The notes under the pieces are model-generated. The model did not search any database. It had not been told where the DNA came from and worked only from the letters and a program-made list of their open reading frames with translations. A stretch of 64,000 nucleotides of DNA from a bacterium (GTDB lineage Bacteria > Vulcanimicrobiota > Vulcanimicrobiia > Vulcanimicrobiales > Vulcanimicrobiaceae): the NCBI GenBank assembly GCA_021790935.1, contig JAJYFL010000004.1:91142-155141 (forward strand), written 5' to 3'. How positions within the stretch are numbered: position 1 is the first letter of the stretch; each line of letters opens with the position of its first letter. The position numbers were made by a program, and so were the translations under genes. This document shows, one piece after another, positions 348-54,030 of the stretch.

Positions 348-514
348 TAGGAGCCTGTCGGGGTTGAGCCGTTTTCGGATTTGGTGCCGAATTTTGTTCG
401 GAGACGAGGCGCGAAGAAGGAGCGAAGCCGTAGCTTCGTGACTGATGAGCAACGATGTATTCGGGCAAAAGGCGGCCCAAAGACGGAAACGTGCTTAACT
501 CCGACAGGCTCCTA
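348..514. repeat. MITE-like ~167-bp element, copy 1
   Basis: Begins TAGGAGCCTGTCGG and ends CCGACAGGCTCCTA. The terminal inverted repeats are ~24 bp. It is ~90% identical to copies at 12732-12897 and 49105-49271. Its terminal CTA (512-514) is the TAG stop of folK on the minus strand. Confidence 0.8.
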
Positions 515-967
515 GAGCGGGGAGACCCCGCGGAGCTCGCGCTCCGGCAGCGCGTCGCGTGCCGCCCCGAAGCGCGGGTCGACCTCGGCTAGCGGTACCA
601 GCGCAAAGGCTCGTCCGTACAGGCGCGGGTGCGGTATCTGAAGATCCCGCTCGTCCACGCGCGCGTCGTCGTAGGTCAGGATATCTAGGTCGATCGCGCG
701 CGGGCCCCAGCGAAAGCTCGGCCGGCGGCCCAGGCGGCGCTCGAGACGCTGCAGCGCGGTCATCAACGCGCGCGGAGCGAGATCGGTCTCGAGAAGCACG
801 ACGGCGTTGATGAAATCCGGCTGGTGCGTGAAGCCCCAGGCGCGCGTCTTGTAAAGCCTCGAGACGCGTACGACGCGGCCCGCCGCCGAGAGCGCCTCAA
901 TGGCCGCGCGAACGCTCGCCTCCGCTTCGCCGAGGTTCGAGCCGATTCCGACGGCCGCACAGCTCAC
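512..967 (-). CDS. folK: 2-amino-4-hydroxy-6-hydroxymethyldihydropteridine pyrophosphokinase (HPPK)
   Basis: The 151-aa ORF has HPPK signatures (GSNLG, RWGPRxIDLDIL). Confidence 0.85.
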   Translation of the reverse strand: MSCAAVGIGSNLGEAEASVRAAIEALSAAGRVVRVSRLYKTRAWGFTHQPDFINAVVLLETDLAPRALMTALQRLERRLGRRPSFRWGPRAIDLDILTYDDARVDERDLQIPHPRLYGRAFALVPLAEVDPRFGAARDALPERELRGVSPL

Positions 968-3998: not shown

Positions 3999-4477
3999 CC
4001 CCTGTCATCCTGAGCTTGTCGAAGGGCATCCTGAGCTTGTCGGAGGGCATCCCGCTCTTGCCGAAGGGATTTTCCGCCGGTCTTCTCCAGCAGCCTCACC
4101 GACTCGATATCGATCCATCGGTCGAGCGCCTTGGTCATGTCGTAGATGGTGAGCGCCGCGACCGCCGCGGCAACCATCGCCTCCATCTCGACCCCGGTCG
4201 GGGCCGTCGTGCGTGCCGCGGATTCGACCCGCAACAGGCCATCGTCATCCCAGGCGAACGAAACATCCACGCTGGAGAGCGCAATCGGATGGGCGAGCGG
4301 TATCAGCTCCGCGGTCCGCTTGGCGGCCATGATCCCGGCGATCTGTGCGGCGACGAACGCATCGCCCTTGGGCAGAGTCGCTGCCGCCAGCGCAGCGCGC
4401 GCGGCGGCGCTCATCCGCACGCGCGCTTGGGCGCGAGCGGTTCGCAGCGTTGGCGGCTTACCGGAAACGTCCACCAT
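3995..4477 (-). CDS. moaC: Cyclic pyranopterin monophosphate synthase MoaC
   Basis: MVDVSGKPPTLRTA..ELIPLAHPI is MoaC-like. The start is taken at internal Met113 of the track ORF. The C-terminal tail (DALRQAQDALRQAQDDRG) is encoded by a 21-nt tandem DNA repeat. Confidence 0.8.
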   Translation of the reverse strand: MVDVSGKPPTLRTARAQARVRMSAAARAALAAATLPKGDAFVAAQIAGIMAAKRTAELIPLAHPIALSSVDVSFAWDDDGLLRVESAARTTAPTGVEMEAMVAAAVAALTIYDMTKALDRWIDIESVRLLEKTGGKSLRQERDALRQAQDALRQAQDDRG

Positions 4478-4539: not shown

Positions 4540-5730
4540 ATGACGATGACGCTATTCGAGCGTGTAGGCGCCAATTCGAGCCCGGAACCCGGGGCCCTAG
4601 CGGACGTGCTATCGCTCTTTGGGGCAGTTGCCGATGCTGCCGCCGGATCCCCGCCCGAAGCGACTCCGAGCATCGCATCGCTCGCGGTCTGGATGGCTCG
4701 GCTCGCCGAGCTCTCGCAGGAAGAGGCCGACGCGCTGTACTTCGCCGCGTTGCTCCGTAATCTGGGCGCGCTCGGTAATCCGGCTTTTGGAAAGGGCGAG
4801 CCGCTGCCCGCACGCTTAGCCGAGATGCATCGCTGGGATATCCCCGTCAGCGGTGCGCGACTCTGCGAATCGATACGGCCGCTACCGCGGCCGACCGCCG
4901 ACCTCGTGCGCTGGAGCGCAGAGCGCTGGGATGGGACGGGGTACCCCGATCAGCTCCGCTGGCACGGCATCCCAAGAGCCGCGCAGGCGCTCCACCTGGC
5001 CTGCACCTACGTGCGATTCGCCGACCGCGAAGAAGCACTCGCAACGATCGCCGGCGAGAGCGGCCAGGCGTTCGCGCCCGAACAGACGCGCACGTTCGTC
5101 ATGTGGTATCACGCGTGCGGCGGTGAGATCGAACCGGTCGGCATTCCCCTGCACGCGCTCGACGCGAAGCTGGCGACGACCGGCGAGATCGTCGATACCC
5201 TCGCCGACCGCATAGACGCACACAACGGCACCCCGGGCCGCTGGAGGCGCGTCCTCCAGCGCGCCGAGCACGCTGCGGCGGCGCTCCAGCTGTCGCCGAG
5301 CGATCGCACCCAGCTCGCTTGCGCCGTGCGCTTCTTCGCAGCGGGCGAGATCGACGACGCAATCCTCGAAGCGGAGCGCTTCGGGCCGATGGCGCGTCTC
5401 GGGGTGAAGAACCGCGCAAAACACGCGGTCGCTGCCGCCGCACTCCTCGAACGCTCGACCACCCTCGGAGCGGCGGCGCCGCTGCTGCGCGCGCGCGCCG
5501 AGTGGTACGACGGCACGGGGAAACCCGACGGCCTCCGGCACGAAGCGATCCCGCCGGCCGCCATGGTGCTCTCGGCATGCATCGCCTACGATGCGCTCGA
5601 ACAGAGTGCCCGCGAAAAAACCCGCGAAGATCATCGCCGCCCGCTCGACCGCATCGAAACGGCCTCCGGAACGCAGTTCGACCCCCGCGTCGTAAGCGCG
5701 CTCGCGCAGACCGTGCAGGAACGCACGTGA
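4540..5730 (+). CDS. Protein with two degenerate HD-GYP-like domains
   Basis: Two copies of the DGTG(Y/K)PD(Q/G)L signature occur (ERWDGTGYPDQL and EWYDGTGKPDGL). The canonical HD and HHE metal-ligand motifs are replaced (LRNLGA and SAERW). Confidence 0.6.
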   Translation: MTMTLFERVGANSSPEPGALADVLSLFGAVADAAAGSPPEATPSIASLAVWMARLAELSQEEADALYFAALLRNLGALGNPAFGKGEPLPARLAEMHRWDIPVSGARLCESIRPLPRPTADLVRWSAERWDGTGYPDQLRWHGIPRAAQALHLACTYVRFADREEALATIAGESGQAFAPEQTRTFVMWYHACGGEIEPVGIPLHALDAKLATTGEIVDTLADRIDAHNGTPGRWRRVLQRAEHAAAALQLSPSDRTQLACAVRFFAAGEIDDAILEAERFGPMARLGVKNRAKHAVAAAALLERSTTLGAAAPLLRARAEWYDGTGKPDGLRHEAIPPAAMVLSACIAYDALEQSAREKTREDHRRPLDRIETASGTQFDPRVVSALAQTVQERT

Positions 5731-12731: not shown

Positions 12732-12897
12732 TAGGAGGCTGTCGGAGTTGAGCCGTTTTCGGATTTGGTGCCGAATTTTGTTCGGAGACGAGGCGCGAAG
12801 AAGGAGCGAAGCCGTAGCTTCGTGACTGATGAGCAACGAAGTATTCGGACGAAAGGCGGCCCAAAGACGGAAACGGCTCAACTCCGACAGCCTCCTA
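12732..12897. repeat. MITE-like ~166-bp element, copy 2
   Basis: TAGGAGGCTGTCGGAGTTGAGCCG ... CGGCTCAACTCCGACAGCCTCCTA forms a perfect 24-bp terminal inverted repeat. Its terminal CTA (12895-12897) is the TAG stop of aroF on the minus strand. Confidence 0.85.
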
Positions 12898-13749
12898 GGC
12901 AACGAGACTGGCGGCTGGAAGGTTGCGCCCCACGGCGCGTGCGACGACGGGCAGACGCAGCATCAGCAGCGCAAACTCCTCGAACCCGAGCGATTGCTGC
13001 CCATCGGAGGCGGCGGCGGCCGGGTCGGGGTGGACTTCTACGAGCAGCCCGTCGGCCCCGGCCGCGACGGCCGCGAACGCCATCGGCTCGACCAGCCGGG
13101 CGATGCCCGTTCCGTGGGAGGGATCGACCACAACCGGGAGATGCGTCAGCTGGTGCAGCAGCGGAACGACGGCCAGGTCGAGCAGATTCCGGGTAGCAGC
13201 ATCGAAGGAACGCACCCCTCGCTCGCAGAGCACCACCTGGTCGTTCCCGGCGAGCAAGAGGTATTCGGCGGCCATCAACCACTCGTCGACCGTTGCCGAG
13301 AGCCCGCGTTTGAGAAGCACCGGTTTCCCGGCTTCGCCCACCTCACGCAGCAGGCTGAAGTTTTGCATGCTGCGCGCACCGATCTGCAGCATATCCGCAT
13401 GGGCGGCGACCAGTTCGACGTCGCGCGGGTCCAGGACTTCGGTCACGACGCCGAGCCCGTTGCGATCGGCCGCATCGCGCAGCAGGCGCAGACCCTCGGC
13501 ACCCAATCCCTGGAAGGTGTAGGGCGACGTTCTCGGTTTGAAGGCGCCGCCGCGCAGCACGTTGGCACCGGCAGACGCAACGGCCTTCGCCGTCGCCTCT
13601 ATTTGGTCGCGGCTCTCGACGCTGCACGGACCGGCGCAGATCGCGAGGACGTCGCCGCCGAAAGTCGCCCCGGAGGCCAAGCGCACGAGCGTACCGAGCG
13701 GCCGGGCATCGCGGTGGACGAGGGCATAGGAACCGGAGGGAGAGGTCAC
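12895..13749 (-). CDS. aroF: 3-deoxy-7-phosphoheptulonate (DAHP) synthase, class I-beta short form
   Basis: Strong match to the AroA(G)/KDOPS-like DAHPS core (CAGPCSVES, LRGGAFKPRTSPY, VVDPSH, MVEVHPDP). Confidence 0.85.
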   Translation of the reverse strand: MTSPSGSYALVHRDARPLGTLVRLASGATFGGDVLAICAGPCSVESRDQIEATAKAVASAGANVLRGGAFKPRTSPYTFQGLGAEGLRLLRDAADRNGLGVVTEVLDPRDVELVAAHADMLQIGARSMQNFSLLREVGEAGKPVLLKRGLSATVDEWLMAAEYLLLAGNDQVVLCERGVRSFDAATRNLLDLAVVPLLHQLTHLPVVVDPSHGTGIARLVEPMAFAAVAAGADGLLVEVHPDPAAAASDGQQSLGFEEFALLMLRLPVVARAVGRNLPAASLVA

Positions 13750-14486: not shown

Positions 14487-15013
14487 CGGATCTTTGCGAA
14501 AACCATCAGATCGTAAATCTCGCCGTTCTTTACGACGGCCCTGCGCATCACGCCCTCCCGCTCGTAGCCCACCTTTTCGAGCACGCGCTGCGACGCCGTA
14601 TTGGGGTGCATGACGACCGACGAGATGCGCTCGAGCCCATGGGTTGCGAACGCGTAATCCGTCAGCGCGCGCAGGGCGGCAGAGGCGATGCCGCGCCCCC
14701 AATGCGGTTCCGCAATCCAATAGCCGACTTCGGCAGTTGTTCGTTCTTCGCGGTCGTGCAAAATGAAACCGGCACCCCCGATCGGTACGTCGTCGATCGT
14801 AACGGCAAAGTGAGTCTGCGGGTCGGAAGATTCGTTGATCTCGATCCACGCACGCGCGTCGTCGAGCGTATACGGATGCGGGAATCGATCTCGCAAGTAT
14901 CGCGCCACGTTGGGGTTATCCGCCGCCCGCACGAGCGCCGACTCGTCGCCCCTACGCCACGGCCGCAGCCGGCAGATCCCGCAATCCAAGACCATTACGA
15001 AACCTCCATCCAA
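14483..15013 (-). CDS. GNAT family N-acetyltransferase (RimJ/RimL-like)
   Basis: The 176-aa ORF has a GNAT fold signature (AEVGYWIAEPHWGRGIASAAL). Confidence 0.75.
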   Translation of the reverse strand: MDGGFVMVLDCGICRLRPWRRGDESALVRAADNPNVARYLRDRFPHPYTLDDARAWIEINESSDPQTHFAVTIDDVPIGGAGFILHDREERTTAEVGYWIAEPHWGRGIASAALRALTDYAFATHGLERISSVVMHPNTASQRVLEKVGYEREGVMRRAVVKNGEIYDLMVFAKIR

Positions 15014-15083
15014 CTCGTACCGAGCCGCCCGGCCCGCACGACGCGTCGCCGCGAAATGTGCGAACTACTGAAACTTCGCTCAA

Positions 15084-15115
15084 GTCTGAGGGCCACATGG
15101 ATGTGGCCCTCAGAC
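15084..15115 (-). terminator. Perfect 15-bp inverted repeat hairpin downstream of rho
   Basis: GTCTGAGGGCCACAT-GG-ATGTGGCCCTCAGAC lies between the rho stop and the next gene. No strong U-tract follows. Confidence 0.4.
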
Positions 15116-15162
15116 GTCTTCGCGGCGACGCGTCGTGCGGGCCGGGCGGCGACGTATGAGTA

Positions 15163-47084: not shown

Positions 47085-47175
47085 TGGAGGAGAGAGTGGG
47101 ATTCGAACCCACGGAACGCTCGTCGCGTTCAGCGGTTTTCAAGACCGCCGCCTTAAACCACTCGGCCATCTCTCC
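47085..47175 (-). tRNA. tRNA-Ser (anticodon UGA) with encoded CCA
   Basis: Reverse complement folds as a tRNA. Acceptor stem GGAGAGA/UCUCUCC, anticodon loop CUUGAAA, a long variable arm and a GTGGGTTCGAATCCCAC T-arm. Confidence 0.85.
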
Positions 47176-47565: not shown

Positions 47566-49104
<1,539 letters not shown>

Positions 49105-49107
<3 letters not shown>

Positions 49108-49271
49108 GAGGCTGTCGGAGTTGAGCCGTTTTCAGATTTGGCGCCGAATTTTCTTCGGAGACGAGGCGCGAAAAACGAGCGAAGCCGTAGCTTCGTGACT
49201 GATGAGCAACGAAGTATTCGGGCAAAAGGCGGCCCAAAGATGGAAACGTGCTTAACTCCGGCAGCCTCCTA
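49105..49271. repeat. MITE-like ~167-bp element, copy 3
   Basis: TAGGAGGCTGTCGG...CCGGCAGCCTCCTA. Its first TAG is the stop codon of the ALDH gene. Confidence 0.85.
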
Positions 49272-52420: not shown

Positions 52421-53467
52421 ATGAGCCTTCGCAACCTCTTTGCGCTCACCGCCGTAGCGCTCTGTCTTGCCGCAACTCCGAAAGCGAAGCCGTTGACCTT
52501 CGCCGAGACGATGCGAACCGCGATTGCCGCGACGCCCTCGGATTTCGCCTCGCTTCGGGGCGCGGCCGAGCCGGCCACGCAATTCGAGCGGGAGTACGCC
52601 ACGCGGCCCGGCCCGCTCTCGTTCGTGACCATCGCCGATGAGTTCGCAACGCTATCGGAGCGCGAGCACTGGCTTCTGAGCTTCGATTGGAAGTTCGACC
52701 CTGGAACGACGACGGCAACGACTGTCGCCCGGACCGTCGCCGAGATGACTCCGCTCGTGAAGGGCTATCGTCTGACGCGATCGACGACGAAAGCGGGCAT
52801 CGTCCGCTTGTTATGGAGCGGACCCGCCGGACGCTCCATCGCGATTCACACCTACACCGTCTCGGCCACCAAGAGCGAGCCCGCTCATAACGGCGTTTCG
52901 GTCGCCGTAATGCAGACGCTGCCCAAGAACCTTCACGTTGCCGCGTACGTTCACGGAATCACCGCGGCTGCGCGCGCGACGGTCGTTCGCGCCGTGGGAC
53001 AGTCGGTCACCCTTGCAACGAGCGATGCGTCGACGAACTTCGCCGCCCTGCGCGGCGATGAACTCCCGCTCGGCGCCATCGATGCAATGATGGCGTCGGC
53101 TTTCGGCGATACGTTTCATCGGTATAAGACCAACGTCGCGTTCGACCGCGCGCTCTATACCTGCCAAATCGAATCCATCCACTTTCCCGCGAAGGAAAAG
53201 AATTTCAGCTCGAAGGACATCTTTGGATGCAAGACGCCGGTCTTCGGCGGCGCAAACGCCGCGTTGACTGCGTCCTTACGAGCGTCGATCCAAAACGCTC
53301 TCGGCTCCGCGTTTTCGTTCACGCCCGCGGATCCAAAGGACGCGTTCTCGGAGGATACGTGGAGCCGGACCGCCGACCAAACGGAAGTTACATTCGGCGC
53401 GAGTGATTCGCACGGTGGCGTCTATTACGAGATCAACGTCTACCACTACTTCCCAAACGGGACCTAA
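52421..53467 (+). CDS. Secreted hypothetical protein (signal peptide)
   Basis: Starts MSLRNLFALTAVALCLAATPKA, preceded by GGAG 6 nt upstream. No family assigned. Confidence 0.5.
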   Translation: MSLRNLFALTAVALCLAATPKAKPLTFAETMRTAIAATPSDFASLRGAAEPATQFEREYATRPGPLSFVTIADEFATLSEREHWLLSFDWKFDPGTTTATTVARTVAEMTPLVKGYRLTRSTTKAGIVRLLWSGPAGRSIAIHTYTVSATKSEPAHNGVSVAVMQTLPKNLHVAAYVHGITAAARATVVRAVGQSVTLATSDASTNFAALRGDELPLGAIDAMMASAFGDTFHRYKTNVAFDRALYTCQIESIHFPAKEKNFSSKDIFGCKTPVFGGANAALTASLRASIQNALGSAFSFTPADPKDAFSEDTWSRTADQTEVTFGASDSHGGVYYEINVYHYFPNGT

Positions 53468-53498
53468 CAGGTTTCTAACGGCCGGCCCCCTTCGGATC

Positions 53499-53521
53499 GT
53501 AGGAGGCTGTCGGCCTCCTAC
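53499..53521. repeat. Solo hairpin derived from the MITE-like element TIRs (GTAGGAGGCTGTCGG-CCTCCTAC)
   Basis: A 14-mer identical to the element 5' TIR is paired directly with its complement, forming a 9-bp stem. It sits between convergent genes. The TAG stop of the minus-strand lipoprotein gene (53518-53520) lies within it. Confidence 0.6.
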
Positions 53522-54030
53522 GGCGCCTGCCCAGCCGGGGTCGGCACGCTCACGCTGTGCGTTACGACGATGTCGGTTTCATCCTTCTTCGACGTGATCA
53601 TGATCGTCGTTCGATCGTTGGCGTCCTTGGAAACGGCGAATTCGGCGATCGAACTATCGCCCGACTCCACCTTCATCTGCTGGCTTCCGGCAGGCATTTG
53701 ACTCTTGTACCACTGGTAGACTTTCTCGAAGGGATCTGTCGTGGTCAGCGTGGCCATCTGGCCGCTGCCTTGCGGGCCGCTCATGGCGTAGCCCCCGTCT
53801 CCCACCACGGCACCCGGATAGACCGGCACGCCCAATTTGGAGACGTCGACGGCGCCCTTGCCCAGCGTCATCGAGCCGCCTTTGGTGGTGATGGTCGCTG
53901 TCTTGTTGTCTTGGCTGGTCGTCACGGTGGCCGCGCCGTTCGCGGTCAAAATCGTCGTCTTGTGGCCATGGCTGCAAGCGGCGAGGCCGGCGACCAGCAG
54001 CACCGGTGCGAACAAGCGAAACTTCCGCAT
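53518..54030 (-). CDS. Lipoprotein, hypothetical
   Basis: Signal peptide with a LAAC lipobox, then a Thr/Gly-rich 170-aa protein. Confidence 0.5.
   Translation of the reverse strand: MRKFRLFAPVLLVAGLAACSHGHKTTILTANGAATVTTSQDNKTATITTKGGSMTLGKGAVDVSKLGVPVYPGAVVGDGGYAMSGPQGSGQMATLTTTDPFEKVYQWYKSQMPAGSQQMKVESGDSSIAEFAVSKDANDRTTIMITSKKDETDIVVTHSVSVPTPAGQAP

Follow-up and report, generated by a model that had tools for sequence, protein, structure and literature searches.

A probable TA-inserting MITE family of Eremiobacterota/Vulcanimicrobiota that rebuilds stop codons and folds end to end on one strand

We describe a family of short, dispersed repeats that is very probably a TA-inserting MITE of the Eremiobacterota/Vulcanimicrobiota, presumably moved in trans by an IS630/Tc1-mariner-type transposase. 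The element is mobile, targets TA dinucleotides with a preference for CTAG, and rebuilds the stop codons into which it inserts. Along its whole length it forms a covarying rod that is favoured on one strand and includes a conserved core. It has the attributes by which MITEs are recognised, being smaller than ~300 bp, bounded by terminal inverted repeats (TIRs) and dispersed over sites that occur both filled and empty. As had been stated from the sequence alone, no transposase ORF is present; the element holds short ORFs only, and these are not conserved between copies. It also bears the mark of IS630/Tc1-mariner MITEs, with TA on both sides of the inserted element and a single TA in the empty site.

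The window (the whole stretch of 64,000 nt that was analysed) contains three copies of 166-167 nt, at exactly the positions that the sequence-only reading had assigned to them (Table 1). They are mutually 93-95% identical and share the same orientation throughout, and their mean column identity, flanks included, is 87%. The 24-nt terminus and a 26-nt core word occur in the window only within these three copies, with 0 occurrences expected from 100 shuffles. The earlier observation that the terminal TAG or CTA serves as the stop codon of the folK, DAHP synthase and aldehyde dehydrogenase genes also proved correct. The count of three had nevertheless overlooked a fourth item, a 21-bp remnant found by a relaxed terminus search. 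The window, which belongs to contig k141_1145927 of ENA assembly ERZ27233562, is ~94% identical to the MAG YF1.bin76, in which (L024) the ortholog of the remnant site is empty and reads ggatc-TA-cggcg, and the ortholog of the copy 3 site holds a 221-nt long form of the element.

Table 1. Coordinates of the MITE copies, their host genes and associated repeats (window positions unless a locus is named).
Feature	Position	Strand	Description
MITE copy 1	348-514	+	167 nt with both TA; element proper 350-512
Setting of copy 1			folK stop (complement of 512-514) on one side, biotin-carboxyl-carrier protein gene, start near 308, on the other; same minus-strand operon
Conserved central core of copy 1	396-465	+	purine-rich GAAGAAGGAG, apex hairpin CGAAGC-CGUA-GCUUCG and strand GUGACUGAUGAGCAACGA
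Matching cores of copies 2 and 3	12780-12848 and 49153-49221		
MITE copy 2	12732-12897	+	166 nt with both TA; empty alleles in other strains
Setting of copy 2			DAHP synthase stop (complement of 12895-12897) and TPR-like secreted protein gene, start 12672; both genes on the minus strand
MITE copy 3	49105-49271	+	167 nt; TAG 49105-49107 is the aldehyde dehydrogenase stop
Downstream of copy 3			DUF779 gene, GTG start 49276, 4 nt past the element end
folK (HPPK)	512-967	-	stop TAG formed by the duplicated TA and the element's first G
DAHP synthase gene (aroF)	12895-13749	-	stop TAG here, TAA in strains without the element
Aldehyde dehydrogenase gene	47566-49107	+	stop TAG formed by TA and the element's first G
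21-bp remnant TAGGAGGCTGTCGGCCTCCTA = TA-GGAGGCTGTCGGCCTCC-TA	53500-53520	+	left terminus fused to right terminus
Gene ending in the remnant	53518-54030	-	stop codon is the remnant's CTA, 53518-53520
Second repeat, ~125 bp	L008 1927-2052, L006 2330-2450, L048 3082-3190, L041 326-401		

Mobility is evident from orthologous loci with and without the element, which have one TA when empty and two when filled. An identical 284-aa DAHP synthase is found with two allele classes, empty in L082, L084 and L085 and filled in the window (L081). The empty allele reads ...CTCGTTGCA-TA-ATCCCGCTGG... (GTTGCA-TA-ATCCCG), and the filled allele reads ...CTCGTTGCC-TA-(162 bp)-TA-ATCCCGCTGG... (GTTGCC-TA ... TA-ATCCCG). 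The filled site is 164 bp longer, and the stop codon of the gene, natively TAA, is now TAG. At a second polymorphic site L034 (BP5.bin84) is empty and its counterpart L009 (YF1.bin76) is filled, and among strains whose FolK is identical some have the full element and others a 46-nt remnant. The suggestion of a non-autonomous mobile element with a TA(G) target preference is thus upheld by dispersed copies, presence/absence polymorphism and a TA on each side. Two findings had been named as counting against it, namely a genome holding only these copies without polymorphism and a match to a known structured RNA family, and we found neither.

The termini TAGGAG...CTCCTA are invariant, complementarity between the two halves runs the whole length of the element, and full copies are all flanked by TA. 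The target context is cTAg at 45/54 independent sites. Deviant sites, which include aTAa/cTAa and tTAg, differ in the outermost base alone, and the inner G and C never vary. Because only this outer base differs, duplications of 4 or 6 bp are excluded and the G...C belong to the element; both an IS5-type 4-bp YTAR duplication and an IS481-type 6-bp NCTAGN duplication are rejected on this evidence. Insertion at TA with doubling of the TA is the defining behaviour of IS630/Tc1-mariner elements (PMC2170065). The sequence fits equally well with duplication of TA, with insertion between T and A, and with insertion 3' of TA by an element that itself ends in TA. A preference for CTAG was reportedly described for IS630 itself by Tenzen and Ohtsubo in 1991.

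Since each insertion recreates CTAG at both ends, abutting elements are to be expected, and at L023 2750-2752 and L032 519-521 two elements lie head to tail and share one TA. Further TA-flanked remnants consisting of termini only are present at stop codons in L017 4779-4797 (position 4782) and L028 5696-5712 (position 5700). Such tiny remnants may have been left by excision, as footprints, or by palindrome-stimulated deletion.

The element starts with G from whichever end it is read (5'-GGAGG...CCTCC-3'). When it enters the TA of a TAA or TAG stop, a TAG is consequently restored whichever way round it lies, and the encoded protein is unaltered. To all collected sequence we applied rough gene calls from a codon-usage log-odds model, and a site was treated as evaluable if 300 nt or more of flank was available on each side. 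A called gene ends in a terminal TAG at 24/55 independent sites and at 24/42 (57%) of the evaluable ones. The corresponding fractions at stops in these sequences are 30.5% for non-coding CTAG sites (p = 3e-4 against element sites) and 10.5% for non-coding TA sites (p ~ 1e-13). The proposal that each copy sits exactly at a stop codon holds for all copies in the window, but family-wide only for the 24 evaluable sites just counted. Stop-codon sites comprise 16 in sense and 9 in antisense orientation, and in L026 the two terminal TAGs end two convergent genes. Much of the association with stop codons, we infer, stems from target preference and the rest from selection that removes insertions at other places in short spacers.

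Searching with an exact 21-mer of the core retrieved 55 loci in 8 species-representative MAGs (18, 17, 9 and 7 copies in four of them and a single copy in each of the rest). The other half of the core supplied a 22-mer that retrieved 16 metagenome contigs with the element. Flanks differ among all 55 + 16 loci. The carrier MAGs are labelled Candidatus Eremiobacteraeota, Baltobacteraceae, Tumulicola or just 'bacterium', and the NCBI taxonomy places Tumulicola within Vulcanimicrobiota. Two size classes exist, a short form of ~163 bp (166-168 nt with the TAs) and a long form of ~217 bp (~221 nt with the TAs), the latter having a 54-nt two-hairpin insert after GCGCGAAGAAG. This insert was seen only inside elements. 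It comes as type A (YF1.bin76) and type B (BP5.bin84), whose sequences differ considerably, but each type forms a pair of hairpins with loops rich in pyrimidines (AUCCU, UCC).

At orthologous sites the insert type follows the genome (type A in L048, type B in L041), a pattern suggestive of inter-copy gene conversion or of replacement at the target that insertion regenerates. The copy 3 site, occupied by a short form in the window, has a long form of type A in L024, with both termini changed from GGAG to GATG. Orthologous versions of copy 2 are 97% identical between genomes, and their flanks 93-95%. A full element in L027 (5545-5715, minus strand) combines the same conserved core with an entirely different terminus and arms (TAGTGTAGGTCG..., TAGTGTAGGTCGTCAAGCAG); its pair 69-100 is flipped to U-A, and it adopts the same rod fold at -92.7 kcal/mol. 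The L027 type is a sister subfamily with one full instance. The same core with different arms and terminus also occurs at L033 6590-6697 (minus strand).

Some elements are hybrids, with halves that match different window copies and flanks that come from different loci (L083 1550-1760; L073, L075 and L077 1950-2130). In L083 the order is DAHP synthase gene (aroF), left half of copy 2, right half of copy 1, BCCP gene (accB). These junctions may have arisen by recombination among copies at separate loci, or the repeat may have caused the metagenome to be mis-assembled. Many of the copies are at the ends of contigs.

The element folds as a unit. Copy 2 folds end to end at -111.6 kcal/mol (z = -13.5), and among 39 distinct short copies, which formed the test set for structure, a 63-pair rod has 98.2% of its cells paired, as against 35-45% in slid controls. 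In this rod 23 pairs have changed on both sides, the covariation score is 0.255 compared with 0.131 in shuffles, and 0/500 shuffles reach the observed values of pairing or covariation. Both differences that the sequence-only reading had cited for a conserved hairpin are present, in copy 1 a compensatory change of GCC/GGC and in copy 3 a U-G wobble. It was right about terminal inverted repeats but not about their limit of 24 bp, since the whole element is one imperfect hairpin of ~63 pairs. The local hairpin UUCGG-N8-CCGAA that it had drawn has to be given up: 0 of its pairs changed on both sides, its covariation is no better than that of shuffles, and its bases pair with the opposite arm. The apex hairpin CGAAGC-CGUA-GCUUCG is invariant, and is consequently neither supported nor refuted by covariation.

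Pairing is better on one strand than on the other. The plus strand folds better in 39/39 copies (mean -100.5 vs -72.6 kcal/mol), and the alignment folds at -98.6 kcal/mol on the plus strand vs -43.9 on the minus strand. Non-Watson-Crick cells comprise 258 G·U and 15 A·C. The ratio of G·U to A·C is 9:11 among singleton variants, which suggests that mutational input is symmetric, 21:2 among variants found in at least two copies and 6:0 among consensus pairs (Fisher p = 0.002). Orientation relative to host genes is mixed (22:15, not significant), so the favoured strand seems to be intrinsic to the element; on long contigs there is no significant bias of orientation with position. Split by orientation, rare variants show a trend in an underpowered comparison (sense, G·U 12 vs A·C 5; antisense, G·U 3 vs A·C 4).

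Conservation is likewise uneven, with 94-99% pairwise identity in the core (columns 50-118) and 76-84% in the arms, and it holds also in those halves of the core that were not used to fish copies. Within the core, three 5'-GA/5'-GA tandem mismatches (67-68/101-102, 70-71/98-99 and 74-75/94-95) form where the purine-rich strands GAAGAAGGAG and GACUGAUGAG oppose each other, and a GA/GAA bubble is present as well. The three tandem mismatches never vary, and the Watson-Crick pairs between them covary, for example pair 72-97 (A-U 25, G·U 7, G-C 7). On the opposite strand the G·A motifs would read as U·C/C·U mismatches. Cut-and-paste transposition of double-stranded DNA predicts neither strand-specific pairing, in which G·U persists and A·C does not, nor a core more conserved than the arms, and to this extent the explanation is incomplete. 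The one-strand fold and the invariant core would suggest an additional function of the single strand, as RNA or ssDNA.

We envisage a history in which the element would insert into a TA dinucleotide, preferentially within CTAG, and thereafter carry TA on both ends. Movement would be in trans, presumably by a DDE transposase of the IS630/Tc1-mariner type. In a compact genome of 64% G+C, the TA or CTAG of a stop codon would be among the few harmless sites, and target preference together with purifying selection would probably concentrate the surviving copies at gene ends. Copies within operons or 3' UTRs would be expected to be co-transcribed, since 4 nt separate copy 3 from the DUF779 start and copies 1 and 2 are placed between co-directional genes. 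The transcript would fold into the rod of ~63 pairs and bring its two ends together, a fold that compensatory changes maintain. A search for an autonomous partner gave none in the window, no inverted-repeat pair 700-2500 bp apart in ~0.5 Mb of collected loci, no match by TIR or core patterns in viral contigs and none by blastn against plasmids. A Pfam scan of 116 neighbouring proteins returned only housekeeping families among those listed (hit by at least two proteins), and no IS630 transposase is annotated in the examined stretches of pSYSM and pCP301.

Several other readings of mobility and function have to be weighed. Rather than a TA/CTAG preference filtered by selection, the element might target gene ends actively, through a longer sequence or some gene-end feature. 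The enrichment of stop codons above the CTAG baseline is what such targeting predicts, but 43% of evaluable sites lie away from stop codons, the targets include aTAa/cTAa and tTAg, and insertions also adjoin other copies (L023, L032). Selection against insertion into the promoters or RBS of very short spacers suffices, and we regard active targeting as quite improbable. Still less probable, to our minds, is a REPIN-like or IS200/IS605-like element, moved as ssDNA by a HUH tyrosine transposase for which the one-strand hairpin is the substrate and the flanking TA the target or cleavage motif. The symmetric ends and the symmetric target (cTAg on both sides, 45/54) fit a dimeric dsDNA DDE enzyme and not a one-sided HUH enzyme; the one TA of the empty site is two once the site is filled; a GTAG/CGTC tag is missing; neither arm is in itself a REP-like palindrome; and no Y1 transposase appears among the families listed (hit by at least two neighbouring proteins). 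What such ssDNA transposition would explain well is that pairing is selected on one strand only, with the plus strand better in every copy of the test set, that G·U is retained over A·C in shared variants and in the consensus, and that the favoured strand is intrinsic to an element of mixed orientation; REPINs are, moreover, hairpin-forming, RAYT-associated mobile doublets (PMC3116915).

The same strand-specific fold could belong to a primarily functional structured RNA, either an sRNA or a cis-acting mRNA module, which spread by transposition and is now kept by the host. Its possible roles are those of a protein-binding rod, a stabiliser of mRNA 3' ends, an RNase III site or a coupling of neighbouring cistrons. 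We consider this unlikely, for no promoter-like site is found in or at the element, no Rfam family matches it, and the element occurs in both orientations relative to host transcription, so that half of the copies would give the poorly folding strand. Copies have also been lost or truncated between near-identical strains, which means that individual copies are dispensable, and the comparison of rare variants by orientation, which addresses selection in situ, is underpowered. A functional RNA would nonetheless accommodate much of the conservation: the core that exceeds the arms even in parts unused in fishing, the three invariant G·A motifs with covarying pairs between them (72-97, and 69-100 as U-A in L027), the entirely different arms of L027 that fold alike, the 54-nt insert that forms two hairpins in both sequence types, and the orthologous copy 2 that is more alike than its flanks. 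Correia and ERIC elements act on mRNA through RNase III or RNase E (PMC10969869). We also speculate, with considerable doubt, that the unit under selection is the strand-specific folded nucleic acid, a rod of ~165 nt, and not the inverted-repeat ends. The element might then be a mobile structured RNA or an ssDNA substrate, with a core that recruits a protein or that hides the insertion from translation of the operon. If this were true, the protein recruited might be a host factor or a transposase of some type so far unconnected with TA insertion, and the element would be more than a passive IS630 deletion derivative.

In comparison with known systems, the element behaves like RUP and other TA-inserting MITEs and folds like the Correia, ERIC and Chunjie elements. 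With RUP and with IS630/Tc1-mariner MITEs, such as plant Stowaway, it shares its small size, non-coding nature, TIRs, TA at both ends and dispersed intergenic location (PMC2229807, PMC2170065). It has no sequence similarity to RUP, which shares its ends with IS630-Spn1, whereas no cognate IS was identified here; the whole-length covarying hairpin, the conserved core and the TAG-rebuilding ends distinguish it from RUP. The Correia or NEMIS elements of Neisseria are MITEs of 100-155 bp that are co-transcribed, form an RNA hairpin end to end which is cleaved by RNase III, and occur as size variants (PMC2229807, PMC10969869). They are unrelated in sequence and phylum and carry an IHF site and promoter-like ends, and neither stop-codon regeneration nor a strand-specific G·A-rich core is described for them.

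The ERIC and YPAL elements of enterobacteria and yersiniae are reported by De Gregorio et al. 2005 to be imperfect palindromes of ~127-167 bp at gene ends, with longer variants that arose by internal insertions. Our element resembles them in being a whole-length imperfect palindrome at gene ends with insert-bearing long variants. It differs in its unrelated sequence, in its documented target and empty sites, and in being conserved at the centre and not at the ends. The effects of ERIC on mRNA depend on orientation (PMC10969869). Chunjie, from Geobacter uraniireducens, is a MITE found inside an operon that it does not destroy, with an RNA fold of -98 to -130 kcal/mol (PMC3184786); unlike our element, it has 9-bp direct repeats, is A+T-rich and belongs to a different transposition family. 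REPINs resemble the element as mobile hairpin-forming doublets in which pairing is maintained and which likely act as single strands (PMC3116915), but they have two REP palindromes, a GTAG/CGTC tag, no target duplication and a RAYT gene, none of which is seen here. An identity as REP or REPIN is rejected on the flank and terminus cTAGGAG, the doubled TA, arms that are not REP palindromes and the lack of a RAYT among the neighbour families listed. Of the earlier label 'REP/Correia-like', the second half remains a fair analogy; the first does not, given the missing GTAG/CGTC tag and the presence of a target duplication.

Other candidate identities were also set aside. The motif CUGAUGAG ... GAA prompted a comparison with the hammerhead ribozyme, and Hammerhead_II, the sole match below threshold, scored 12.4 and 14.7 bits against a gathering threshold of 37 (E = 8 and 2). 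The element lacks stems I and III, 7/39 copies have CCGAUGAG in place of CUGAUGAG, and the resemblance arises from the tandem G·A pairs. An integron attC is excluded by GTTGAGC and GCTCAAC standing in the opposite order (attC has RYYYAAC 5' and GTTRRRY 3'), by the loss of these core sites in divergent subfamilies (GGGTTATGG) and by copies that lie among housekeeping genes with no cassette array. In Rfam 15 no family reaches its gathering threshold on the element, short or long, and only a tRNA in the window does. A peptide gene inside the element is contradicted by an ORF whose frame and length differ between copies and which is frameshifted in copy 2.

The idea that AGGAGG could act as a Shine-Dalgarno sequence for downstream genes is not supported, on grounds of geometry and of sequestration in the stem. 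The motif stands at the 5' end reading into the element on either strand, ~160 nt from the distal flank, and the fold pairs it with CCUCCU; nearest the flank the sequence reads CCUCCUA. No promoter-like site for an internal sigma-70 promoter was found, and two matches resembling intrinsic terminators are sub-helices of the rod.

Further repeats and genes lie in the neighbourhood of the element. A second repeat of ~125 bp (TAAGCCATGGCCCC...GCGCCATTTTCACCT), unrelated in sequence and accompanied by a 3-bp duplication (CAG or CTA), is located in or directly beside a MITE terminus (Table 1), and probably represents a separate MITE family whose targets are these ends. Two copies on the minus strand (L028 ~2400-2460 and L042 ~4050-4100) are truncated in the left half and joined to sequence with CCTAACAGGTT. 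This motif also occurs at window 53462-53475, next to the remnant, and possibly marks where a further inserted element ends. Within a long coding ORF at L004 1121-1138, 1.1 kb from a full copy, 18 nt match the terminus exactly (GGAGGCTGTCGGAGTTGA), which chance or an old fragment could account for.

Between two minus-strand genes at window 15013-15161 there is a long inverted repeat whose 43-nt arms show 91% complementarity and enclose a hairpin tctgagggccacatggatgtggccctcaga. Its sequence is not related to that of the MITE, and it could belong to a further repeat family or act as a bidirectional terminator. At window 4006-4068 a called ORF begins with three tandem 21-bp units (CATCCTGAGCTTGTCGAAGGG, 81-100% identical). 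On the minus strand at window 47088-47175, ~400 nt upstream of the aldehyde dehydrogenase gene, lies a tRNA gene (62 bits) whose variable arm is long; it is unconnected with the element.

A search of the literature returned nothing on repeats of the Eremiobacterota/Vulcanimicrobiota, and as far as the searched literature shows, this is the first mobile repeat family described from this uncultured phylum of soil and peat. It offers a sequence-level example of a near-neutral transposon in a compact genome, whose ends rebuild the stop codon in either orientation. There are practical consequences too, as the repeat breaks or mis-joins MAG assemblies, changes stop codons from TAA to TAG and creates spurious ORF extensions in annotation. 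Beyond these, the strand-specific pairing and the invariant G·A-rich core provide a lead to an interaction between a protein and RNA, or between a protein and single-stranded DNA.
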